Sequence record: OQ703618.1
Strand: one strand, 5' to 3'
From: Escherichia phage GADS24
Length of the DNA stretch: 64,000 nt
Below the pieces are notes generated by a model, which was not told the DNA's origin, made no database searches, and saw nothing but the letters and a program-made list of their open reading frames with translations. The translations under genes and the position numbers were made by a program. How positions within the stretch are numbered: the stretch's first letter is position 1; the number at the start of each line of letters is the position of its first letter. Below are positions 10,959 through 61,987 of this stretch, piece by piece.

Positions 10959-12272
10959 TCAAATAAAATGGACGTCAAACCGACCACGAGTTGTGCCAAC
11001 ATACAATAACTGTTTAGCTAATTCTGAATCGGCATAATGGATACACGGTGTATAAACAAAGGCCGTGTCAACAGACATACCCTGGGCCTTATGGAAGGTT
11101 GATACTGGTAGTGCCTTCACCTTAGTGAACATACGTTTAGCATCCCAGAATTCGCTCCATGGAGCTTTACCACCTTTATTCCAAAATTTGTATGTTTCTG
11201 CGGTTTTAGCCAAAAACAAATTGAATTTATAAAGCTCTTCTTCAGAAGAAATAACCTTTATATCTTCGCGGATGTATTCTTCATCATCCCCATATGTTTC
11301 TACTGTAAGATTCCAGTATCGTATCATATATTCGCCTGAAACACCCCGTGCTTTAACAAATGTAGACGTTTCTACAGCATCTCGAATACGAACGAATTGT
11401 CCGTTATTGAAAAGCATTTCAGTCATATTTTTGCCATCTAACTTATATGTCTTGGTAAACGGCTCTTGTAGAACAATGACTTCATCTTTAATAAATGGCT
11501 TTTCTGTTTCGAGAAGTTTTCGGCGAATAATTGAATTTAACTTGTCTACTGACTTATTTGTGAATGCCATCATTCGATTTTCGAAAAGGTCTTCAGGAGT
11601 TTTAACGACGTTAAAATAATTCATCATATACGATTTAAGGTCTGTATATCCGTGAACACCGTGCCCATCAACTACTTTATCGTAAATCCATTTGCCATTA
11701 CGAATATCAGTCGCAACATCAATAATTGGTGCATTGCTACGTTTAACTTCTGTAAGGTTGCATTGCACGAAGTCTTTGTGTGTGAAGAAAGGACTTAGAT
11801 ACGCAGTTGATTCGCCTGGGTCTACCGGACGAATTTGGCATCGGTCGCCGATTCCAATTACTGTACACCATTTAGGGATACTAGCTAACATTATTTTAAA
11901 CAGAGAACGGTCGCACATTGACGCTTCATCAAATAACAGCACACGGCACAAGGCTAAGTCTGGAACCTTTTTCTGTTCAAATAATACGTTTTCTTCGTAT
12001 GTAGTTGGGTTGATTTTAAGAATGCTATGAATAGTCGATGCTTCTTGACCTGCGAGTTTGCTTAGAACCTTTTTAGCAGCATGTGTAGGGGCTGCTAAAA
12101 TAATACCTGATTCTCCAGAAGAAATAAGGGCTTCAACGATGAATCTAGTAAGGGTTGTTTTACCTGTACCAGCAGGCCCATTAATAGTTACGTGATGTTT
12201 CTTTTCTTTAATAGCGTTCATAACAACGTTGAAGGCGTTTTTCTGGCCTTCAGTCAAATCATCAAATGTCAT
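10959..12272 (-). CDS. dda: Dda DNA helicase (SF1)
   Basis: 437 aa; Walker A GPAGTGKTT; T4 Dda-like. Confidence 0.85.
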   Translation of the reverse strand: MTFDDLTEGQKNAFNVVMNAIKEKKHHVTINGPAGTGKTTLTRFIVEALISSGESGIILAAPTHAAKKVLSKLAGQEASTIHSILKINPTTYEENVLFEQKKVPDLALCRVLLFDEASMCDRSLFKIMLASIPKWCTVIGIGDRCQIRPVDPGESTAYLSPFFTHKDFVQCNLTEVKRSNAPIIDVATDIRNGKWIYDKVVDGHGVHGYTDLKSYMMNYFNVVKTPEDLFENRMMAFTNKSVDKLNSIIRRKLLETEKPFIKDEVIVLQEPFTKTYKLDGKNMTEMLFNNGQFVRIRDAVETSTFVKARGVSGEYMIRYWNLTVETYGDDEEYIREDIKVISSEEELYKFNLFLAKTAETYKFWNKGGKAPWSEFWDAKRMFTKVKALPVSTFHKAQGMSVDTAFVYTPCIHYADSELAKQLLYVGTTRGRFDVHFI

Positions 12273-12580
12273 CGTAAAGTCCCTGCAATCGGAATACTAA
12301 CAATACGGCCTGTGTCCAGGATTCGTTGATACAATTTTTGCGTCTCCGCATCTAGTTTAATGTGTTTCATTTCAAGCTTATTAAACCAGAACTTACGCGG
12401 AGTTTCGACCATTCTTAGAACTCCCATTTTTAAATCTGTTTTATACTGTGTTTTCAAAGTATCGAAAACTTTATCTGCAATATCCTTTCTAAAAAATACT
12501 GCAGGACGATGCTCATCAAGTGGAACCGGGACAGTAAATCCTTCCATATCTCGATAAACTATTGCATATACATAAACCAT
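12269..12580 (-). CDS. hypothetical protein (dda.1 position)
   Basis: 103-aa ORF overlapping dda start. Confidence 0.45.
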   Translation of the reverse strand: MVYVYAIVYRDMEGFTVPVPLDEHRPAVFFRKDIADKVFDTLKTQYKTDLKMGVLRMVETPRKFWFNKLEMKHIKLDAETQKLYQRILDTGRIVSIPIAGTLR

Positions 12581-12582
12581 AA

Positions 12583-13329
12583 TTAACCTTTAATCAGTTG
12601 GAATAATGATGCGCTAAGTGGTAGGCCACGTTTCAATTTTAATTTACCAATGAAACCGATCTTTTCAAAACGTTGCAGACCTTGGATAACTTTATCATAT
12701 GTATCGAAAAGCGATTCAGCGTCAGTTAATTTAGTTTTAGTTTTCCAGTCAGAGCCTTTAAGAAGAACATTGAGTTTAGTAAGTTCATGGCCTTCTGCTT
12801 GATGTGAGCCATTAATGCGTGCTTTCAAAGCAACAATTCTAAGTTTAGATTCGTTAGATAAAGGTTGATTTTTCATCATGTTCGCCATATGCTTAACACG
12901 ATTTTCACGTTTTGCTCGGATTTTTAAAATAGTACCATAAACCTTTTTAATTTGGGCCCATTTCTTCTCGTCGAGATTAAGTTTCTCTACTTTACGGGCA
13001 GAAGGATTAGCAATACGTCTTGCAACAGCGTCACGTTTCTCAATAAGTTCTTCTAATGTTAAATCAGAACGAGCCGTGTTATATTTTTTCTTAACTGGGA
13101 TAACATTACCTTTAATGTAGCCTATATCATTATTAAAACGTTCTAAGGATAATTTCTCACCTTCAACAGAGTTATTGAAAGATTCACCTGAGTAAGCGCA
13201 GACCTTTTGATCAAGAATGTTTTTAAGGTAATTAAAGTCTAAGTTAAAATCCTTAGAGCGTCTCTTCGCAGAAGCTCTAGTGTGGTCAAGACGACGATTG
13301 ATTTTGTTAATTTTATTATTTGATAACAT
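12583..13329 (-). CDS. hypothetical basic protein (possibly degenerate HNH-like or Srd-position protein)
   Basis: 248 aa; Lys/Arg rich; CAYSGESF...IGYIKGNV resembles degenerate HNH; assignment uncertain. Confidence 0.45.
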   Translation of the reverse strand: MLSNNKINKINRRLDHTRASAKRRSKDFNLDFNYLKNILDQKVCAYSGESFNNSVEGEKLSLERFNNDIGYIKGNVIPVKKKYNTARSDLTLEELIEKRDAVARRIANPSARKVEKLNLDEKKWAQIKKVYGTILKIRAKRENRVKHMANMMKNQPLSNESKLRIVALKARINGSHQAEGHELTKLNVLLKGSDWKTKTKLTDAESLFDTYDKVIQGLQRFEKIGFIGKLKLKRGLPLSASLFQLIKG

Positions 13330-13378: not shown

Positions 13379-13407
13379 ATAATATCACGCCCTCAGGTAG
13401 TGTACAC
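13379..13407 (-). promoter_or_regulatory. T4-type early promoter (-35 GTGTAC, -10 TATTAT)
   Basis: Hexamers 17 bp apart followed by AGACCTATCA. Confidence 0.5.
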
Positions 13408-13481: not shown

Positions 13482-14090
13482 TCAGTAACTGACAATAGAC
13501 AGATTCCAGATTGTATAACGTCCATCTTGAATAATAGAATCTACACGCAGTGTAGTCCCTATAGGGAGCATAAATTCACATTCGTCAGATATAAGTCTAG
13601 CATTAGACCGTCTTGTCGCTTCAGGGAAAGCTCCATTGAACTCGCAAGATGGTGCAGCCAGAATCATATTAAGCATATGTTCACGGAAGTTGAAAGCAAA
13701 TGGTGCATCTTTGATGCAGAACATATTAAATGTTCCATAAAAATTATATGAAGCGAAGTTACGTGCTACACCAAACACCGGACTAAAGCTCATTACTCTA
13801 TCAAATTTAATAATACTACCAACGCCTTTATCGTCGAGTGTGGCCATAGTTTTCTTAGAGATTCCACGATACATTGTCTCAGGAACTGAAGAAGACCAAT
13901 TTCTACGAACGATTGAACTTAACTCCTGTTGAATACAGTCTGGCTTGTTTTCCATACACTGCCAAAGGATGCTTTGTTCATTATCGTTGAATTGACTATC
14001 AATTTCGTACTGCAATACATCTTGATATTCGGGGTTTTGAGCACGACGAACCATTTCTTCAATTTCACACTCGTTATACGGCATAAACAT
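13482..14090 (-). CDS. ADP-ribosyltransferase, ModB-like
   Basis: 202 aa; R (YRG), S-x-S (FSP) and E-x-E (ECE) motifs; tandem with paralog; T4 modA/modB synteny. Confidence 0.55.
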   Translation of the reverse strand: MFMPYNECEIEEMVRRAQNPEYQDVLQYEIDSQFNDNEQSILWQCMENKPDCIQQELSSIVRRNWSSSVPETMYRGISKKTMATLDDKGVGSIIKFDRVMSFSPVFGVARNFASYNFYGTFNMFCIKDAPFAFNFREHMLNMILAAPSCEFNGAFPEATRRSNARLISDECEFMLPIGTTLRVDSIIQDGRYTIWNLSIVSY

Positions 14091-14118
14091 TTTGGTTTCT
14101 CCTCTGGTTGATAGGACT

Positions 14119-14147
14119 ATAGTATCATCGTCCTTGTTGTTTGTACA
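14119..14147 (-). promoter_or_regulatory. T4-type early promoter (-35 TGTACA, -10 TACTAT)
   Basis: Hexamers 17 bp apart. Confidence 0.5.
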
Positions 14148-14729
14148 CTAAAAATTCAACATTTTTAAATGAATGATTTTGTATAACCGAGATAAAGGGT
14201 CATATTCTAAGTCTTCAATTTCCACAATCTCAAATCTAGAGATACCTGAGACCATGTACTCTTGTTCAGATTCAATCATATCTAGGACGTCAACACGTGT
14301 TTCTTCCATAACATGCTTAGGGTTCTTTCCGGCAAGTACAATGTTAACCATGTTTTGGTAGTAATCAAAAACGAATGGAGCATTCCTGAGACTAAGAATA
14401 GTGTACGTCTGGTATTCCCAACTCCCGGAGAATTGACGAGCTGTACTGAAATCAGTTGTGAACGATGTTACTCGTCCAGGAGACCAATGGCATCCAACAG
14501 AAAGAAGTGAAAGACGTTCTACTTCTTCTGGAGTTACACCACGGTAGAGTTCTACTGGTACTGTAGAAGTCATATGCTTACGAACAAGATGGTCTAATTC
14601 ATAGTGGAAATCCGGGTCTTCCTTAGAATCGGTGCAAGCCCAGAGAATGTTTTGTTCTTGGCGGGTGAATTTGCTATCAATCAGATTTGTTAGGTATTCA
14701 CGTTCTTGAAGTTCAGATTGACATGTCAT
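14148..14729 (-). CDS. ADP-ribosyltransferase, ModA-like
   Basis: 193 aa; LYRG and acidic catalytic motif; paralog of 13482..14090. Confidence 0.55.
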   Translation of the reverse strand: MTCQSELQEREYLTNLIDSKFTRQEQNILWACTDSKEDPDFHYELDHLVRKHMTSTVPVELYRGVTPEEVERLSLLSVGCHWSPGRVTSFTTDFSTARQFSGSWEYQTYTILSLRNAPFVFDYYQNMVNIVLAGKNPKHVMEETRVDVLDMIESEQEYMVSGISRFEIVEIEDLEYDPLSRLYKIIHLKMLNF

Positions 14730-14756: not shown

Positions 14757-14785
14757 ATCATAACACGAGAGGAGGGAATGTAAAC
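14757..14785 (-). promoter_or_regulatory. T4-type early promoter (-35 GTTTAC, -10 TATGAT)
   Basis: Hexamers 17 bp apart upstream of modA-like gene. Confidence 0.5.
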
Positions 14786-15126: not shown

Positions 15127-15591
15127 TTATTCACCAAGATAAAAACTAGCAGGTTCAGAGAATGTTTCTAGTGCTACGCCTTTTGTCTTAAAAAATTTCC
15201 AAATAGCTCGTTGCAAATGGGTTAAATCTGCTAATGATGTAATAAAGTATTTTTTGGCAAAATACTTATGGTCTCGCTTTTCAAATAAGTCTAAACGCTT
15301 TTCAGGATTCACATAAACTGCATTTTCCGTAGATTCATAACCTAAGTCCTTTATGCCTTCTTCAAGACTAAACGGAGAATTTTTAGAATGAGTAATAGCT
15401 CCAACTCGCTCTACACGAATTTTGTAACCTTTAGGAATCTGCAATTTGCAGAATTCTTCTACGATATATTGCGGATTATTTAGACTTTTGTTAATGAGAA
15501 TAGCTATTTCTAGTGGAGTCTTATCTTCTACTGGTATATGTTTAAACGACTTGGCTTCAAGCAAATACATTTTAAATAACATAGCATCCAT
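15127..15591 (-). CDS. hypothetical protein
   Basis: 154-aa ORF. Confidence 0.5.
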   Translation of the reverse strand: MDAMLFKMYLLEAKSFKHIPVEDKTPLEIAILINKSLNNPQYIVEEFCKLQIPKGYKIRVERVGAITHSKNSPFSLEEGIKDLGYESTENAVYVNPEKRLDLFEKRDHKYFAKKYFITSLADLTHLQRAIWKFFKTKGVALETFSEPASFYLGE

Positions 15592-16275: not shown

Positions 16276-16303
16276 AAAAAAAAAGGAATCCCGAAGGATT
16301 CCT
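16276..16303 (-). terminator. intrinsic terminator downstream of soc
   Basis: 8-bp stem aggaatcc, UUCG tetraloop, then run of 9 T on minus strand. Confidence 0.75.
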
Positions 16304-16311
16304 TAAATTAT

Positions 16312-16548
16312 TTAACCACTTACTGGTGTAGGGGTAAACATTGCAGCGTTCTTAGTTTTCCAAGTTGCTGCATCAGAAACTACAGTAGAATATGCTGCCT
16401 TTTCTGACGGAAAGATTTGATAATGAGAATCCGCAATCCGATGTTCGTTTGAATAAATCTCAAACGGTACAGAAACTTCCATACCTTTAACTTCTTTACC
16501 TTCACCAGCAGGATGCGTAAAGGTTTTGATGTTTACATAACCACCCAT
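16312..16548 (-). CDS. soc: small outer capsid protein Soc
   Basis: 78 aa; GYVNIKTF and HYQxFPSEKAAYSTV match T4 Soc. Confidence 0.8.
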   Translation of the reverse strand: MGGYVNIKTFTHPAGEGKEVKGMEVSVPFEIYSNEHRIADSHYQIFPSEKAAYSTVVSDAATWKTKNAAMFTPTPVSG

Positions 16549-19145: not shown

Positions 19146-19805
19146 TTAACCTCGATTCATAAATGCATTAAATATTTGGTCATCAACAGAAATTTCTAAT
19201 TCGACTTCAATTGTTTCAGCCTTTTCTTCAGGTGGTAATTCGTATCCACACACTACAATTTTTTCATCGATACCAAAATATACAGAAGCAATACGATTAA
19301 TGTTACTTTCAGTTAAGTCTAAATCAACATCAACATCTTTTTGACATACACTTAAAGGATAACTAATACGGGTTATTTTATTATCTTTAACAAAGAGTCC
19401 GCCAACATACTCTGTACTACGTTTGAAGTTTACACGTTTCCGAATTGAAAGATATGATACATCTTTACCGTGAGCTCGGCTCATAGGACATAATGAATAG
19501 CTAGAATAAGAGATGTCAAATCCTACACCTTCAATATGAGCCAACGCGTCATGATTAAACCAATTATAATCATATGCCAAATCCATTATATTGTAATATG
19601 TGAAAGGCATCGGATTAACATCATACGTTGTACCTTTAAAATCTGCCCAGGCGACGATTTCGTTATCTTTAACAATTACAAAAATTACACCAATATGATA
19701 TCCGTTATTATTTTCGTTAGGCGTTATATTATAACATTGTGCATTAGGAAATTTACCATATTTAAATGGCGCATTTTTGTGCATATAATAAATCATATTA
19801 TTCAC
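19146..19805 (-). CDS. hypothetical protein
   Basis: 219-aa ORF. Confidence 0.5.
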   Translation of the reverse strand: MNNMIYYMHKNAPFKYGKFPNAQCYNITPNENNNGYHIGVIFVIVKDNEIVAWADFKGTTYDVNPMPFTYYNIMDLAYDYNWFNHDALAHIEGVGFDISYSSYSLCPMSRAHGKDVSYLSIRKRVNFKRSTEYVGGLFVKDNKITRISYPLSVCQKDVDVDLDLTESNINRIASVYFGIDEKIVVCGYELPPEEKAETIEVELEISVDDQIFNAFMNRG

Positions 19806-21107: not shown

Positions 21108-21299
21108 TTATCCTCTGAAATCAGCTTCAAAAACTTTCTCGTCATTAACAAATGCTTTAACTAATGCTTTGTTCACTTCAGCAAGTTGTACCGTAACCCA
21201 CTCGATTTCTTCGCGATCACCTGATAACATGATATCTTTAGTGAACATCTCACCACTTTTAAACCAACCAATAAAAGTAACTTTAGTTAATTTGCTCAT
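21108..21299 (-). CDS. dmd: Dmd antitoxin (discriminator of mRNA degradation)
   Basis: ~63 aa; GWFK...MFTK...AEVNKALVKAF recognised from T4 Dmd. Confidence 0.65.
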   Translation of the reverse strand: MSKLTKVTFIGWFKSGEMFTKDIMLSGDREEIEWVTVQLAEVNKALVKAFVNDEKVFEADFRG

Positions 21300-21613
21300 A
21301 TTTCCTCGCAAAATGCCCATTCAGCGTGATAAACTGTAGCACCTTTAGTATTATTCATTTGAACTACGTCTACCGGAGAAATTACTCGATAGAGACGTGG
21401 TTCACCTCCATAAGAGCGTGCTGCTCGTCCTGCATAAATCTTTGCTAAACCAATATCTTCAGTAAAGAATACACGATCCAGGTTTTTCTTACGTCCAGTT
21501 TCAGACAGAACTCCTGTTTCCTCAGGAGGACAAAGCATGTTTTCGATGTTAGCTGAACTACTTGAACCGTGATAAAAAATCTTAAATTCTGCTTTACAAT
21601 CGATGGTTTTCAT
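21296..21613 (-). CDS. hypothetical protein
   Basis: 105-aa ORF, own early promoter. Confidence 0.45.
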   Translation of the reverse strand: MKTIDCKAEFKIFYHGSSSSANIENMLCPPEETGVLSETGRKKNLDRVFFTEDIGLAKIYAGRAARSYGGEPRLYRVISPVDVVQMNNTKGATVYHAEWAFCEEI

Positions 21614-27636: not shown

Positions 27637-28793
27637 TCCGGGTACCTCAAAGCGTCGTCAGAGTTAGTTATATCAATAATAGATATAGAATTTTCTGATA
27701 ACCCATTTTTAGATAACTGACGTTTATAATATCTTTCACAATATGTACACGTCGTCCCGCAGATTTCATTAGCACAATCGAAATCTGGATGTCTGAACCA
27801 CCTTTTTTCTAAAAAGCCGTCTAACAAAGAGGTTTCAATATTTACCGTATGTGAAAACTCGGTCTCATTTTCAAGAGTGAAAATGGTCTCTAAAGGCTTC
27901 CACAGTTCTAACAAATTACCTTCAAACTTTTCAGAAGCGTATGCTTCAAGAACTTTCAAAATGTAGTCTGTGCTACCTGTACGTCCTGAAACTTTGAATT
28001 GAGTGATACCAATATCATTATAAAGTTTCAAATCTTGTGGACGAACAAAACGAGTTCTCAACCAGTTAAATGGGTCTGTATCACGAGCTTTAATACAGTG
28101 CTGCATAGGATATCCATTTAAGGATTTAGCATCATCAGCTGTAACATCAGTACTATGGAAAATATAGCAAGAGTCACGATAGCTACAATGTGTTGTATAC
28201 CCTTTACCAGCATTAGAACAGAACTCATTTACAAGAACTTCAAATATTATATTGTTCTTATTGCAAAACTCTGCTGCACGCTTCAGGAAAGAAACTGAAC
28301 GGTTCTTATGAATTCCACAGCAGACCTTTTTGATATTATACTGGTCATGTAAGTATTTGATTTGAGTTACAGCATCGACATGTAAAATTGTTGAAACTTC
28401 AATCTCAATGTCTTTATTGACTTCACGAACAATTTCCATAACAACAGGGTTAGCGATAGTAATACGCCATACGCCTATTGACCAAAGATACTGAACATAA
28501 TCCTGAATAGCTTTCTTCTTCCACTCAACTAGTTCTCTTTTTGAACCGGGATTTATCGTGTTGAGTGTATAGTTAAAGCAAATACCTAATTCGTTACAAC
28601 GTTTAACGTAATCTTCTAACATCTTTTTGTCAACGTCAGGAAGCCTAAAATCAGGTCTGGCTGCTACAAAAGCCATTTCTCTTGTAGAGCCGTATACTTC
28701 GTTTATCAAGCTATTAGGATAAGTTTTATTGAGCTCTACGATTTTATCAAGAAGAGCTAAATCAAAATTCGTTCCGATTTTAAAAGTATTCAT
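27633..28793 (-). CDS. Cys-rich hypothetical enzyme in modification cluster
   Basis: ~386 aa from ATG preceded by A9 tract; multiple Cys clusters (CCGIH, CANEICGTTCTYCE). Confidence 0.5.
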   Translation of the reverse strand: MNTFKIGTNFDLALLDKIVELNKTYPNSLINEVYGSTREMAFVAARPDFRLPDVDKKMLEDYVKRCNELGICFNYTLNTINPGSKRELVEWKKKAIQDYVQYLWSIGVWRITIANPVVMEIVREVNKDIEIEVSTILHVDAVTQIKYLHDQYNIKKVCCGIHKNRSVSFLKRAAEFCNKNNIIFEVLVNEFCSNAGKGYTTHCSYRDSCYIFHSTDVTADDAKSLNGYPMQHCIKARDTDPFNWLRTRFVRPQDLKLYNDIGITQFKVSGRTGSTDYILKVLEAYASEKFEGNLLELWKPLETIFTLENETEFSHTVNIETSLLDGFLEKRWFRHPDFDCANEICGTTCTYCERYYKRQLSKNGLSENSISIIDITNSDDALRYPE

Positions 28794-28852
28794 TTTTTTT
28801 TTGCATCTCACGTTAATTGACGCGATGGTTTTTGCAGGTCTTACTTAAATTA

Positions 28853-29239
28853 TTATAGATTCGGTTTATATGATTTAAATGTTTCGAATTCGCCTTTATT
28901 CATAAGAGCTTTGAATTCGTCGGGACGCATAGCTTTGTCGTCGATAATCCAATCATATACTGGTTTATGTGTTAGCAAATTATGGTACTTCAAGCCAATG
29001 TTTGCCAAGTTCTGAATAAGACTTGGGAGAATGTCAATTGCTATACGACCAGGACCTACTGACTTCATACCGCGAGCAGTGTAAAGCGTTATGGTATGCC
29101 CTGCATCATACAGGGCATTAATGGCAGACACCATTTCGACGTCTGGTTTGAAGTTCACGTAATCACGATTGTTATTCCACTCTGTTATACAATCATCGAC
29201 ATCAAAACAAAGATTAAGCATGTTTTCTACACGGTGCAT
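28853..29239 (-). CDS. HAD-like phosphatase (small)
   Basis: FDVDDC motif (DxD) near N-terminus; start overlaps upstream stop (TAATG). Confidence 0.45.
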   Translation of the reverse strand: MHRVENMLNLCFDVDDCITEWNNNRDYVNFKPDVEMVSAINALYDAGHTITLYTARGMKSVGPGRIAIDILPSLIQNLANIGLKYHNLLTHKPVYDWIIDDKAMRPDEFKALMNKGEFETFKSYKPNL

Positions 29240-30924
29240 TAGATTCGTTCCCATTGATGAGTGATATCGCCACCGATTGGACGATAGGAAACACCAGTTT
29301 CTTTATCAGTTAGTACCCATTTACCAGGATTTTTTGTAATCAGAGTAGCCGTTACAGGTTCTGCCATGTCATAACTAATAGAGCCGTCCTGAAGTACACG
29401 GCCCATGTTACGTAATTGCTTAGTCAGAAGTTCCATACCTTTATAATATGCGGCTACCGCTTTAAGTGGATTATTCTTGAAATAACCACCTAATGCAATC
29501 CAGATAATTGCTACAGCCAAATGATGATACTCGTTAAATGAACTCATCTTTCCATATTTGTAAACTAATGGATTGATGTTAATAGTCACATTACAAGTTG
29601 TTTCATCAATAGTAAACTGTCCCCAGGTCGGATTAGCGTTGAATTCATCATAACCTGAAACAGCATAAAGCACTTTAGCTTCATCGTACAATTTTGGCCC
29701 GTAAATCTTGGTTTCGCCAAAATATCCACGAGGGTCGATAAACTTGACTTCGCCGTTATCAGTAATCATAGTATTACTGAAGTTCGGGTCACCGTGAATA
29801 ACAGAGTACTGTCCCTGAGAACGGTTATGATAACGAATAAGGTGTTCTAAAGCTTGTTTCAGCATTGGCTTCAGACGCCCAATCTTAGTGTAGTTCACAT
29901 GTGTGATTTTACCAAATGAATCAATCAATGGTTGAATACTTTCACAACGATCAATAACTTTCGTATAGAATTCTTTAGTGAAATCACGACGAACAGTTTC
30001 AGGACTTACAAAATAAGTGTCTGTGCTGAATTTCAGTGCATCTAAAATTGCATCAACAATTTGTGGACGAGCAAGACTCGATTTAGATTTAATATATTCA
30101 AATGCCGGCTTACCTTTAATGCGTTCCATTTCAAAGTTATTTTCATTAACAGAAACTAACTGAGGAACTGAATCTGATTTCACTTTAAGATACCATGAAA
30201 TCTCATCTTTCTGAAGAGCTCGTCCCTGTTCGGTTAATGCGAATTTAGTTACAGTTTCTTCACCAATTTCAACTGCATTAAAACTACGATTAAGTTCACG
30301 AACTTCATGAGCTTTTTCAAGTTTAGGCATATCACCTAAATCAATTAGATTCATAAGCTCTGATTTATTGAATGCGCCGCTGTAAAGGAATTCTACGAAA
30401 TCACGTCCTTTGCAGTATTCATGAATTTCCTCATCAGTAGAACCCATATAGAATTCCCAGTCTTTGAATTGATAAATTCCTACAACATTACCACCTGTTG
30501 AACCTACGTTAGTGATATTTTCACCGTCGAAATTATATCGACATTCGTCACCCTTAACATAGATTGCGTTAACATTCCAAGACCATGAACCAAAATCAGG
30601 AATAATATCACACCAGTTAACAATTACATTATGGCCGTCTAAATCTTTGTGTAATTTAGCAAGAGCATAAGCGGAACCATATGCTTCATCAACTGTACGA
30701 ATAGTCACATTGAACCCTTCTTGCTCACAATAAGCTCGAACAGTTTCAGCAAATTTTGAATGAACTACTACAATAATTTCATCTGCGCCAAGGTCAGAAT
30801 AAATTGTATACAAATTGCTCAGAATAGTGTCTTGTTTATAGTTAACAAGCACCTTAGGAATATGATGCGTTATTGGATACAAACGAGTTGCCAGTCCAGC
30901 ACCAAGAATAACAGCTTTTTTCAT
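29239..30924 (-). CDS. bifunctional sugar-1-phosphate nucleotidyltransferase / APH-like sugar kinase
   Basis: N-term GAGLATRLYPITHHIPKVL (G-x-G-T-R NTase); C-term HGDPNFSN and IDPRG (Brenner kinase motifs). Confidence 0.7.
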   Translation of the reverse strand: MKKAVILGAGLATRLYPITHHIPKVLVNYKQDTILSNLYTIYSDLGADEIIVVVHSKFAETVRAYCEQEGFNVTIRTVDEAYGSAYALAKLHKDLDGHNVIVNWCDIIPDFGSWSWNVNAIYVKGDECRYNFDGENITNVGSTGGNVVGIYQFKDWEFYMGSTDEEIHEYCKGRDFVEFLYSGAFNKSELMNLIDLGDMPKLEKAHEVRELNRSFNAVEIGEETVTKFALTEQGRALQKDEISWYLKVKSDSVPQLVSVNENNFEMERIKGKPAFEYIKSKSSLARPQIVDAILDALKFSTDTYFVSPETVRRDFTKEFYTKVIDRCESIQPLIDSFGKITHVNYTKIGRLKPMLKQALEHLIRYHNRSQGQYSVIHGDPNFSNTMITDNGEVKFIDPRGYFGETKIYGPKLYDEAKVLYAVSGYDEFNANPTWGQFTIDETTCNVTININPLVYKYGKMSSFNEYHHLAVAIIWIALGGYFKNNPLKAVAAYYKGMELLTKQLRNMGRVLQDGSISYDMAEPVTATLITKNPGKWVLTDKETGVSYRPIGGDITHQWERI

Positions 30925-30952
30925 GTTGTGGTCCTCATTGGTAAGTAGGAGT

Positions 30953-30977
30953 ATTGTACACTATTCTAGTTAAAGCA
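30953..30977 (-). promoter_or_regulatory. T4-type middle promoter (MotA box TGCTTTA, 12-bp spacer, -10 TACAAT)
   Basis: Minus-strand motif ~30 nt upstream of NTase-kinase ATG. Confidence 0.45.
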
Positions 30978-31099
30978 TTCATACTTTGCTTGTAGTCCAA
31001 TCATAATCCATCCAATTACAAGTGTTGGAATCATTACTGGAGCCGTTAAGCTCCAGTAGATAGTCATGACAAGCATCAATAGTAAAAGTCCTATTGTTA
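30956..31099 (-). CDS. small hydrophobic protein (47 aa)
   Basis: Hand-translated MKAITIGLLLLMLVMTIYW...; overlaps middle promoter. Confidence 0.25.
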
Positions 31100-31105
31100 T
31101 TGCTT

Positions 31106-31741
31106 TCATTGTTCGCCTCGTAACATGGCACCTAGTGCACCACCAGGGTGGAACTTAAGGAAGTCATTAGAGGTAAATCCACGTTCAGACGAAAGGTTGA
31201 TAGCGAACGTATCGATAAGCGCTAACAACAATGTAGTAGACATTGTCGGAGCTAAAGAGTTCTCGTCAACTTCTACCGCGATGCCTGTACAGAAAGAGTA
31301 ATCAAAAAGGGCTTCATTTTCTTGCGGAATGTCAGGGTTACAATGTAACAGAATCTGTTTAACCTGAGGACGAATCATACGAAGATGTTTAGCAACACCT
31401 ATCATTTCTTCGGTTTTACCAGAACGACTAATATGAATCAACACATCATTAGGCGCAATGAATCCTGCATCACCGTGAGAATAATGCCCAGTGTTCAAGT
31501 ACATACTCGGGATACCGAGTGAAGCAAATGTCTCAGAAGCTTTAGTTGCAATATTAGCATTCTTACCAACACCTGTAATAATTACTCGGCTTTCATAATT
31601 ACTAAGTCCTGGGCGTCGAAGAGTTTCTAGAATAGCATTATAACGAGCAGGGTTTTGACTAATTACTTTGGCCATAGTAGCCAAAGAAGAAGCTTGTTTT
31701 ACGATTGCGTCAATAGCGATAGTAATAGGAGTAGTTTTCAT
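31106..31741 (-). CDS. SIS-domain sugar phosphate isomerase (KdsD/GutQ-type arabinose-5-phosphate isomerase-like, no CBS domains)
   Basis: 211 aa; GVGKNANIATKASETFASLGIPS...HGD...ISRSGKTEE matches SIS signature. Confidence 0.7.
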   Translation of the reverse strand: MKTTPITIAIDAIVKQASSLATMAKVISQNPARYNAILETLRRPGLSNYESRVIITGVGKNANIATKASETFASLGIPSMYLNTGHYSHGDAGFIAPNDVLIHISRSGKTEEMIGVAKHLRMIRPQVKQILLHCNPDIPQENEALFDYSFCTGIAVEVDENSLAPTMSTTLLLALIDTFAINLSSERGFTSNDFLKFHPGGALGAMLRGEQ

Positions 31742-31781
31742 ATTTCTCTCATTTAATTAGTTTACCGTCCATGGTATTATA

Positions 31782-59994: not shown

Positions 59995-60002
59995 TATTTA
60001 TA
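59995..60002 (-). promoter_or_regulatory. T4 late promoter TATAAATA
   Basis: Exact TATAAATA on minus 25 nt upstream of 59970 ATG. Confidence 0.45.
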
Positions 60003-60579
60003 ACAACCCTGTCAAATCATTCCAATGCTTCCGGCATAATGACACATATCTATCGGTATCACCAATTTCAATTTGACTGCCATCCGTAATTGGAAGTCCG
60101 TCTTCCGTGACTCTAGCTACCATTGTGGCCTTTTTACCACAATGACAGACACCTTTAAGTTCAACAAGCTTATCGGCAATAGCCATTAATGCTTGAGAAC
60201 CTTCAAATAGATTACCTTTAAAATCTGTTCGTAGTCCATATGCCATTACTGGCACATTGTATACGTCAACAATACGACTAAGTTGATACACCTTTTCAGT
60301 AGTTAAGAACTGAGCTTCGTCAACAAATACACAATGAATATCCTTTTGTGCTGCAGCCCATTTATAGAATTCAAAGATATCCATGTCTTTTGTAATTATA
60401 TTGGCGTCCTGACGAATACCAATACGAGAGACTATTTCACCTTTTGAATCGCGAGTATCAATAGCCGGTTTAAGAACTAATACACCCATGCCACGTTCTT
60501 TATAGTTATGTGCGGCAGTAAGTAATGAAGCAGACTTACCAGCGTTCATAGCGGCATATGTAAAAATTAAACTAGCCAT
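59998..60579 (-). CDS. tk: thymidine kinase
   Basis: Start MASLIFTYAAMNAGKS; T4 Tk-like. Confidence 0.9.
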   Translation of the reverse strand: MASLIFTYAAMNAGKSASLLTAAHNYKERGMGVLVLKPAIDTRDSKGEIVSRIGIRQDANIITKDMDIFEFYKWAAAQKDIHCVFVDEAQFLTTEKVYQLSRIVDVYNVPVMAYGLRTDFKGNLFEGSQALMAIADKLVELKGVCHCGKKATMVARVTEDGLPITDGSQIEIGDTDRYVSLCRKHWNDLTGLL

Positions 60580-60995: not shown

Positions 60996-61198
60996 TATTC
61001 TTCTACATGTTGTTTACGGCCTTTCTTATCAATAAAGGTATATTCAACGAATGTTCCGATGTAGTCTTTATCTACATCATGTGGACTATTAATTGGGCAT
61101 TTGGTACGACAAATGCGTTCCCATTGACGAATAATTACTGCCTTATTCTTTGGGTCATATGGATGTGGATAATGTATATTCATAATAACGGTTCCCAA
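60971..61198 (-). CDS. hypothetical protein
   Basis: 75-aa ORF. Confidence 0.4.
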   Translation of the reverse strand: MGTVIMNIHYPHPYDPKNKAVIIRQWERICRTKCPINSPHDVDKDYIGTFVEYTFIDKKGRKQHVEEYCLKVTWL

Positions 61199-61677
61199 TC
61201 AACAATCACAATTTCTAGTTTAGTGGAATACGTATCTAAAATCTCTTCGATGACATCCCAGTTTCCACCACCAATACCTGCACCAATTCTTGGCATATAA
61301 ATTACAGGCTTTGTTATCTTATTCTTTCCGAATTCATTTAATTCTATTATACAATTCATTAAAGCAGAGTACTCAAAATTAGGTCCCGGCTCAAACTGCG
61401 TATAAAGATTAAAGCAATAAGCTTTATGGGTCTTAAAATATTTTTCATAAACCGAATAAGTCCCGAGTTTAGACTCGTCTCCGAATTCGGTTTGAAGTTT
61501 ATCAGCTTCCAGAATTTTTGGATAAGCCTTTGCTAATTGTCCTGCCACACCGGCGCCCATTGTATGAAAACAATTACACCCATGAGCGATATTATTACCT
61601 TTAGAAAACAGGGCGACAATATCGCCCTTGATATAGTTTTTAATCACTTGCTGCAAGTCCTCTATTATAAGAGTCAA
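61180..61677 (-). CDS. macro domain protein (ADP-ribose binding/hydrolase-like)
   Basis: 165 aa; GCNCFHTMGAGVAGQL and GIGGG macro signatures. Confidence 0.6.
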   Translation of the reverse strand: MTLIIEDLQQVIKNYIKGDIVALFSKGNNIAHGCNCFHTMGAGVAGQLAKAYPKILEADKLQTEFGDESKLGTYSVYEKYFKTHKAYCFNLYTQFEPGPNFEYSALMNCIIELNEFGKNKITKPVIYMPRIGAGIGGGNWDVIEEILDTYSTKLEIVIVDWEPLL

Positions 61678-61987
61678 CTAGACGGTCCACCATAGAATTG
61701 CATGCTGCCTTATCTTTAGGTTCCGCCACCGAGCATTCTAATATTTGCCATTTTTTATAGTATCTTTTAATTAAGGTAGACGCCTTGAACCTACTAGACG
61801 CCCCATCTTTTTCTCCGTCTTTATACGCATATAACAATTTTTGTGAAAAATCTACTTTACACTCTTGACTTTGACCACAATAATCAGACGCCGTTCTGTT
61901 TGTATACTCCGTTATATCAGTATATGTAGTATTAGCAAGAGCGTTAAATGAAACCAAGCCAACTATTAAAGCCAACATTTTGGTCAT
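61640..61987 (-). CDS. secreted protein with signal peptide
   Basis: 115 aa. Confidence 0.45.
   Translation of the reverse strand: MTKMLALIVGLVSFNALANTTYTDITEYTNRTASDYCGQSQECKVDFSQKLLYAYKDGEKDGASSRFKASTLIKRYYKKWQILECSVAEPKDKAACNSMVDRLVDSYNRGLAASD

Follow-up and report, generated by a model that had tools for sequence, protein, structure and literature searches.

ModA/ModB-type ADP-ribosyltransferase genes and a Tk.4/AdfM macro-domain gene in the Mosigvirus Escherichia phage GADS24

The window analyzed here is a stretch of 64,000 nucleotides from Escherichia phage GADS24 (sequence record OQ703618.1), in which two adjacent open reading frames, ORF1 and ORF2, occupy positions 13482 to 14729, and a macro-domain gene is located far from them. 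The explanation that best accounts for these genes, and that we consider quite probable as a whole, is that ORF1 and ORF2 encode arginine-specific ADP-ribosyltransferases (ARTs) of the T4 type, and that the macro gene is a counter-defense gene of the Tk.4/AdfM kind with no partner among the Mod genes. The window comes from a T-even phage of the RB69-like genus Mosigvirus; the nucleotide identity of the locus to Escherichia phage JN02 (Mosigvirus, RB69 group) is 98.5%, and coverage of the locus reaches 80% or more in 152 phage records. In most of these records, the two mod genes are already labelled 'RNA polymerase ADP-ribosylase', 'ADP-ribosylase' or 'ModA or ModB ribosyltransferase'. The ModA/ModB-type enzymes and the Tk.4 macrodomain are thus conserved, already annotated T-even genes, and the window is that of a typical Mosigvirus.

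As listed in Table 1, ORF1 and ORF2 stand in tandem on the minus strand. The two products are paralogs with 34% identity over 147 amino acids (aa) (E=9e-28), and both matched PHROG 832, 'RNA polymerase ADP-ribosylase', at E of about 1e-38; the values for ORF2 were E=3.4e-38 for PHROG 832 and E=3.5e-41 for PHROG 26695. ORF1 is 31% identical to T4 ModA (E=2e-21, 74 bits) and 30% identical to T4 ModB (E=3e-32, 103 bits), and ORF2 is 27% identical to T4 ModA (E=3e-10) and 38% identical to T4 ModB over 160 aa (E=1e-28). Neither ORF had a match in the local copy of Pfam, in which context it should be mentioned that Pfam PF26816 is a precomputed label on Mod homologs. The sequence search of the PDB with the two ORFs gave chance-level matches only (SPT7, nucleophosmin; E of 0.01 or weaker). 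Because no meaningful sequence match was available in the PDB, fold comparison was used instead, and it found the ART fold in the Mod ORFs.

The residues expected of an active enzyme are retained in both ORFs. In the four-way alignment of ORF1, ORF2, T4 ModA and T4 ModB, R75, G76, S101, E170 and E172 (ORF1 numbering) are invariant, where R75, S101 and E170/E172 of ORF1 correspond to R72, S96 and E163/E165 of T4 ModA. The arginine, the first serine and both glutamates of the catalytic ExE motif are kept in all 28 aligned Mod homologs. R72 is taken as the NAD-binding arginine of ModA and E163/E165 as its ExE catalytic residues, in line with the result for ModB R73A. This substitution in T4 ModB, at the position of R75 in ORF1, abolished both ADP-ribosylation and RNAylation (PMC10468400). 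The possibility that either paralog is catalytically dead, which the first-pass annotation had named as a finding that would refute its reading, was therefore rejected, since the R, S and ExE residues are intact in both ORFs. The same annotation had described tandem paralogs with R, S-x-S and acidic motifs at the T4 modA/modB position; the paralogy, the motifs and the position were borne out, except that ORF2 carries S-x-T in place of S-x-S.

The gene order of the window agrees with that of T4, which reads mrh ... modA.2 - modB - modA - srd - dda.1 - dda, and the position of the pair is accordingly conserved. Taken with the motifs, these data identify ORF1 and ORF2, as judged from sequence, as ModA/ModB-type ADP-ribosyltransferases of the T4 Mod family, of the R-S-ExE type.

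The Mod family is small. A word-indexed homolog search with ORF1 found 12 close relatives and was replaced by a profile search run exhaustively over 1.84 billion cluster representatives, in which 62 clusters had E values no weaker than 0.001, and the family is essentially restricted to phages. Bacterial toxins of the R-S-E clade (iota-like CPILE-a, VIP2, the C3 exoenzymes, Certhrax, Vis, HopU1, SpvB and ExoS) share 10–19% identity with the Mod proteins, which, unlike these toxins, possess an N-terminal four-helix region of their own.

The relation of each paralog to ModA and ModB was considered using the distribution of mod genes and the phylogeny. Two mod genes are present in Tequatrovirus, Mosigvirus and Dhakavirus, with the tandem arrangement conserved, and a single mod gene adjoining srd is present in Gelderlandvirus, Moonvirus, Karamvirus, Jiaodavirus, Roskildevirus and Krischvirus (eight T-even genera were sampled). 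An unclassified Klebsiella phage of the Straboviridae has one mod gene at the same site; in Klebsiella phage HMGUkp2, a dmd-like gene lies between mod and srd. In the neighbor-joining tree, ORF1 grouped with the downstream Dhakavirus copy at 97% bootstrap support and then with T4 ModA at 73%, and ORF2 grouped with the upstream copy of Dhakavirus MX01 at 100%. T4 ModB was placed among the single-copy genes in clades with supports below 30%, and ORF2 showed a loose grouping with the single-copy Gelderlandvirus and Moonvirus genes, the deep nodes of the Mod tree being poorly supported. In the test with hidden Markov models (HMMs), T4 ModA scored 87 bits against the ORF1 group and 32 bits against the ORF2 group, and T4 ModB scored 114 and 89 bits, respectively.

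These results place ORF1 in the ModA lineage with moderate support, as far as tree and profile scores can tell, and it is only by its position that ORF2 corresponds to ModB. T4 ModA itself appears in the sequence comparison as a fast-evolving long branch. ORF1 resembles T4 ModA (NP_049635) in occupying the same slot upstream of srd and in length (202 versus 200 aa), and differs from it in that the identity is low and that ORF1 scores higher against T4 ModB. ORF2 resembles T4 ModB (NP_049636) in being the upstream gene of the pair and in the S-F-T and E-Q-E motifs found in both, and differs in having no specific phylogenetic affinity to it. The spacing of the genes also differs: modB and modA of T4 overlap by 4 nt, and the pair in the window has 57 nt between its genes, including a promoter-like element. 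The idea that Tequatrovirus and Mosigvirus/Dhakavirus acquired their pairs by separate duplications was considered and rejected as less parsimonious; neither ORF1 and ORF2 nor T4 ModA and ModB are sisters, and the gene order is conserved. In RB69-like phages, gene order is the main basis for the labels 'ModA' and 'ModB', since both paralogs are about 30–38% identical to the T4 enzymes.

Several of the observations on the Mod pair weigh against the explanation given above. Four of the five AlphaFold models of ORF1 were of low confidence because the alignment is shallow. T4 ModB is not specifically closer to ORF2 in the tree or in the HMM test. Moreover, the identity of ORF1 and ORF2 to T4 ModA and ModB is only 27–38%, and T4 ModB gives the higher score with each of the two, from which it follows that their target specificities may differ from those in T4. 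The job of each paralog, modification of Arg265 of the RNA polymerase alpha subunit on the one hand and of translation factors or RNAylation on the other, cannot be read from the sequence alone.

The same low identities and BLAST scores are the starting point of an alternative in which the Mosigvirus Mod paralogs are not split as ModA and ModB of T4 are, and their targets are swapped or one or both serve mainly as counter-defense enzymes, for example, against Mokosh-type systems. The lineage of ORF2 is confined to Mosigvirus and Dhakavirus and shows no specific affinity to T4 ModB, only one mod gene is found in the majority of the other T-even genera, and a ModA ortholog of Bas37 and T4 Alt have been implicated in the evasion of Mokosh type I, all of which would suit such a divergence. 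However, the conserved tandem arrangement and position, and the grouping of ORF1 with T4 ModA in both the tree and the HMM test, speak for a division as in T4, and nothing direct points to different targets. We regard the alternative as a serious one that is nevertheless unlikely to be correct.

The favored explanation gives the following picture of the Mod pair. A GGAG-type Shine-Dalgarno sequence is located 7–8 nt upstream of each ORF, and promoter-like elements precede ORF2, ORF1 and srd (Table 1); that before ORF2 is a T4-early-like sigma-70 match. A common pattern of the three elements can be written as G-T-[GT]-TACA ... TG-n-TAT-n-AT/TATAG-n-CCTATCA. This suggests that srd, ORF1 and ORF2 each have a predicted early promoter of their own, unlike the overlapping modB/modA of T4. 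The elements fit the early expression known for T4 modA/modB; they are consensus matches and not proof of function, and the regional promoter count did not exceed that in shuffled sequence (13 versus 9.7 ± 3.6). ORF1 and ORF2 would be early genes, probably transcribed from early promoters after infection, and their products would transfer ADP-ribose from nicotinamide adenine dinucleotide (NAD), or possibly from NAD-capped RNA as T4 ModB does, to arginines. The acceptors would be host proteins of transcription and translation. In T4, the target of ModA is Arg265 of the RNA polymerase alpha subunit (PMC2988021, PMC10468400), and ModB, which accepts NAD-capped RNA, ADP-ribosylates and RNAylates S1, L2, EF-Tu and trigger factor (PMC10468400). 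Targets and timing are carried over by analogy from this work on T4, to which the window genes are tied by homology, synteny, motifs and folds.

The macro-domain gene is, by its sequence, the ortholog of T4 Tk.4. The product is 83–84% identical to Tk.4 over 155 aa in tblastn, matched PHROG 335 at E=7.7e-67, and exceeded the cut-off of the Pfam Macro family (PF01661; 28.1 bits versus 22, E=2.2e-6). In T4, tk.4 lies between vs and tk.3-tk.2-tk.1-tk, and the neighbors in the window are the same. The mechanically called ORF extends over 61180..61677 from a TTG at 61677 inside vs and has 165 aa. The homology to T4 Tk.4 covers residues 11–165 of this ORF and begins at the GTG at 61647 (residue 11), which overlaps the stop codon of vs (GTGATTAA); this GTG therefore gives the probable product, with 155 aa and not 165. 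The earlier description of a 165-aa macro-domain protein near tk is right as to the domain and requires correction as to the length, and the gene is four genes away from tk. Neither the Mod pair nor the macro ORF can be put down to chance. Apart from the start codon, which is ATG in T4 and GTG here, nothing substantive distinguishes the gene from its T4 counterpart.

The structural model of the macro protein, obtained with a 30-sequence alignment, is confident (predicted local distance difference test score, pLDDT, 95.4), and its Foldseek matches were TARG1 (1.6e-10), Poa1p (7.4e-10), BT1257 (8.9e-10), and DarG (2.9e-8 and weaker). The profile of the family matched only the TARG1/Poa1p/DarG class of macrodomains in the PDB. 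The ADP-ribose-binding motifs of the macro protein, as read from the alignment, are intact: N25, G33 and P119-x-I-G-x-G-I are invariant in the 30 homologs. N25 aligns with N23 of the AdfM of phage PhiKZ, which corresponds to N22 of DarG2 in the structural overlay of the authors (PMC13309987). A degenerate domain that no longer binds ADP-ribose, which the first-pass annotation had also named as a finding that would refute its reading, was rejected in view of the invariant binding loops and the high confidence of the model. DarG2, phiKZ AdfM and TARG1 resemble the window protein in belonging to the same macrodomain class by profile and fold and in the conserved Asn and glycine loops; the window protein, unlike DarG2, has no DarT-binding C-terminal domain.

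As shown in Table 1, the position of the catalytic lysine is occupied by glutamine, and the N-x-Y-T-Q motif is invariant in the Tk.4-type family. The catalytic Lys is K80 in Thermus aquaticus DarG2 and K78 in phiKZ AdfM (PMC13309987). In the HMMER profile alignment to TARG1 (4j5r), T83-Q84 of the family pairs with T83-K84 of TARG1, and D125 of TARG1 pairs with a small residue of the profile, which is Gly in the window protein; the PDB chain itself was used in this alignment. The alignment with phiKZ gp104 showed no Lys of the Tk.4 family at phiKZ K78, and the similarity between the Tk.4-type protein and this AdfM is marginal (E=6e-4). To judge from these residues, the T-even AdfM may use a different catalytic arrangement, or may have extra substrates such as ADP-ribose-1''-phosphate. 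The absence of the DarG catalytic lysine from the T-even AdfM family raises a concrete question of mechanism for work on DNA de-ADP-ribosylation.

The function of the macro protein is indicated by genetic work on T4. In the HIDEN-SEQ transposon screen, depletion on a DarTG2-expressing host was significant for one T4 gene only, tk.4, and a clean tk.4 knockout sensitized T4 to DarTG2, from which the gene was named adfM, for anti-DarT factor Macrodomain (bioRxiv 10.1101/2025.11.20.689424). The phiKZ-like macro protein, also called AdfM, removes the ADP-ribose placed by DarT2 from DNA in vitro (PMC13309987). By analogy with these proteins, the macro protein is most likely a counter-defense factor against the host writer DarT2; it would bind ADP-ribose and strip the groups that DarT2 places on thymidines of the single-stranded phage DNA. 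The window holds a second anti-DarT gene, that of AdfA (Table 1), an anti-DarT1 factor first described in RB69, and the macro gene therefore fits a counter-defense repertoire aimed at a host writer. Two facts detract from this assignment. The catalytic Lys of DarG, TARG1 and phiKZ AdfM is replaced in the Tk.4 family, so a DarG-like mechanism of hydrolysis is not guaranteed; and the anti-DarT2 role of Tk.4 derives from the T4 genetics of one preprint, with biochemistry only for the distant phiKZ protein.

The substitution of Lys is shared with BT1257 of Bacteroides, which also has a PRIGxGxAGG loop. BT1257 (PDB 2fg1/2afc; E=1.7e-15 with the family profile), whose function is unknown, and yeast Poa1p (PDB 6lfq-6lfu; E=1.6e-12), an ADP-ribose-1''-phosphate phosphatase acting on a small molecule, are the closest solved structures by sequence, closer than DarG, with about 24–26% identity to the window protein. 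This raises the possibility that the macro protein mainly processes small soluble derivatives of ADP-ribose, such as ADP-ribose-1''-phosphate, O-acetyl-ADP-ribose, or ADP-ribose-based immune signals or toxins, and that the anti-DarT2 effect is secondary or one of several activities. The annotation of PHROG 335 as 'phosphatase' points the same way, and a survey of comparative genomics made the case that the macro domains of phages are directed mostly against soluble derivatives of ADP-ribose (PMC9503650). However, DarT2 acts on DNA, and the gene that stood out alone in the DarTG2 screen, with the knockout in agreement, was tk.4; the phiKZ protein, even though distantly related, removes ADP-ribose that is linked to DNA. 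A main role on small molecules is therefore considered improbable.

The first-pass annotation had proposed that a phage carrying both writers and a potential macro-domain reader or eraser might modify host or phage targets in a regulated or reversible manner. In such a case, the macro protein would read or erase the marks of ModA and ModB (or Alt), making the modification reversible or temporally regulated. Both activities are indeed encoded in one genome, the functional motifs are retained in all three proteins, Mod and macro genes generally occur together in T-even phages, and no report is known of Tk.4 having been tried on Arg-ADP-ribose. However, the Mod genes (13.5–14.7 kb) and the macro gene (61.2–61.6 kb) are ~47 kb apart with dozens of genes between them; they belong to separate transcription units and show neither the genomic linkage nor the co-transcription of writer-eraser pairs such as DarT-DarG and DraT-DraG.

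The distributions of the two families are also unequal. Homologs of the macro protein occur in 2799 phage records versus 1043 for the Mod proteins; they are present in Pseudomonas, Vibrio and Acinetobacter phages, which the list of genera with Mod homologs does not include, and all Mod loci examined belong to the Straboviridae. The two families do not co-distribute, and the wider range of the macro family indicates that the co-occurrence of both in T-even phages reflects shared ancestry. The chemistry leads to the same conclusion. Macrodomains of the TARG1/Poa1p/DarG class act on O-linked, DNA-linked or free derivatives of ADP-ribose, and we know of none in this class that cleaves Arg-ADP-ribose. 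The marks of T4 ModB are arginine N-glycosides, which are removed by ARH1 and resist hydroxylamine and ARH3, that is, treatments specific for O-linked ADP-ribose (PMC10468400). Because of the distance, the unequal distribution, the chemistry of the Arg N-glycosides and the specific anti-DarTG2 phenotype of Tk.4, the coupling of writer and eraser is unsupported. Erasure by the macro protein of the marks of the phage's own Mod enzymes is thus improbable, and we assign to the proposal of reversible modification only a very small probability.

That the Tk.4-type macrodomain, with its invariant Gln, is a hydrolase of broader specificity, which in addition to countering DarT2 would trim the ADP-ribose or RNA-ADP-ribose adducts of the phage's own Alt, ModA and ModB, is just as improbable; its substrates could be collateral marks on phage proteins or nucleic acids, nothing that we found supports it, and, if true, it would make the ADP-ribosylation program of the phage self-limiting. 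The macro protein is therefore better read as an anti-DarT2 counter-defense factor beside AdfA than as a Mod eraser.

Table 1. Positions of the Mod, macro and neighboring features in the window
Feature	Position	Strand	Description
ORF1	13482..14090	(-)	202 aa, ATG start; Mod-family mono-ADP-ribosyltransferase in the T4 modA slot, directly upstream of srd in transcription order
ORF1 Y74-R75-G76	13863..13871	(-)	predicted NAD-binding arginine, equivalent to T4 ModA R72 and ModB R73
ORF1 S101-F-S103	13782..13790	(-)	S-x-S/T motif
ORF1 E170-C-E172-F173	13572..13583	(-)	ExE motif of arginine-specific ARTs, equivalent to T4 ModA E163-Q-E165
ORF2	14148..14729	(-)	193 aa, ATG start; Mod-family mono-ADP-ribosyltransferase in the T4 modB slot
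ORF2 Y62-R63-G64	14538..14546	(-)	predicted NAD-binding arginine
ORF2 S89-F-T91	14457..14465	(-)	S-x-T motif, as in T4 ModB
ORF2 E155-Q-E157-Y158	14256..14267	(-)	ExE motif
Promoter match before ORF2	14757..14784	(-)	sigma-70, T4-early-like; just upstream of ORF2; TTTACA, 16-nt spacer, TG-extended TATGAT; 10/12 consensus matches
Promoter-like element before ORF1	about 14110..14143	(-)	GTGTACA...TATAG; sequence reading
Promoter-like element before srd	13379..13406	(-)	GTGTACA...TATAG; sequence reading
Macro-domain gene (T4 Tk.4/AdfM ortholog)	61180..61647	(-)	155 aa from GTG at 61647 (probable start)
Macro H22-G-C-N25-C26	61570..61584	(-)	N25 invariant in 30 homologs; aligns with PhiKZ AdfM N23
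Macro G31-A-G33	61540..61557	(-)	ADP-ribose-binding loop; G33 invariant, G31 present in the window protein
Macro N80-L-Y82-T83-Q84	61396..61410	(-)	invariant Gln at the catalytic-Lys position of TARG1 K84, DarG2 K80 and PhiKZ AdfM K78
Macro P119-R-I-G-A-G-I-G-G-G128	61264..61293	(-)	diphosphate-binding glycine loop; P119, I121, G122, G124 and I125 invariant in 30 homologs
vs	61640..61987		adjoins the macro gene
tk	59998..60579		macro gene four ORFs upstream in the transcription direction, as in T4
AdfA, 'Anti-DarT factor A'	19146..19805	(-)	219 aa; Pfam PF23813, E=1.4e-117; PHROG 3781
srd	12583..13329		downstream of the mod pair in transcription order; PHROG 1400, E=1.6e-99
dda.1	12269..12580		downstream of the mod pair; Pfam Phage_Y01A
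Dda helicase	10959..12272		downstream of the mod pair
Mrh-like gene	15127..15591		upstream of the mod pair; Pfam T4_MRH, E=4e-38

Upstream of the mod pair, there are two small ORFs in addition to the Mrh-like gene. Further along the window, a hairpin with a perfect stem of 9 bp, AAGGAATCC-TTCG-GGATTCCTT, with a T-run after it, is located at 16283..16304 (both strands), directly downstream of a 78-aa ORF (16312..16548), and is terminator-like on the minus strand. The product of this ORF appears similar to Soc, the small outer capsid protein of T4.

Just upstream of dmd (21108..21320), a 105-aa ORF on the minus strand (21296..21613) matched PHROG 2110, of unknown function, at E=6.9e-60, with no match in Pfam and no sequence match in the PDB. 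Its sequence contains 'FYHGSSS ... RVFFTED ... LYRV ... YHAEW', which may loosely recall the NAD-binding motifs of the H-Y-E type.

In JN02, an 'NTP-transferase domain-containing protein' and a 'SIS domain-containing protein' are annotated at 27919..30421, just upstream of the DNA polymerase gene, a pair that T4 does not have at this site. Extrapolated using the offset of +1314, the pair would correspond to about 29200..31750 on the minus strand of the window. These genes may have a part in modifying hydroxymethylcytosine with sugars in RB69-like phages.

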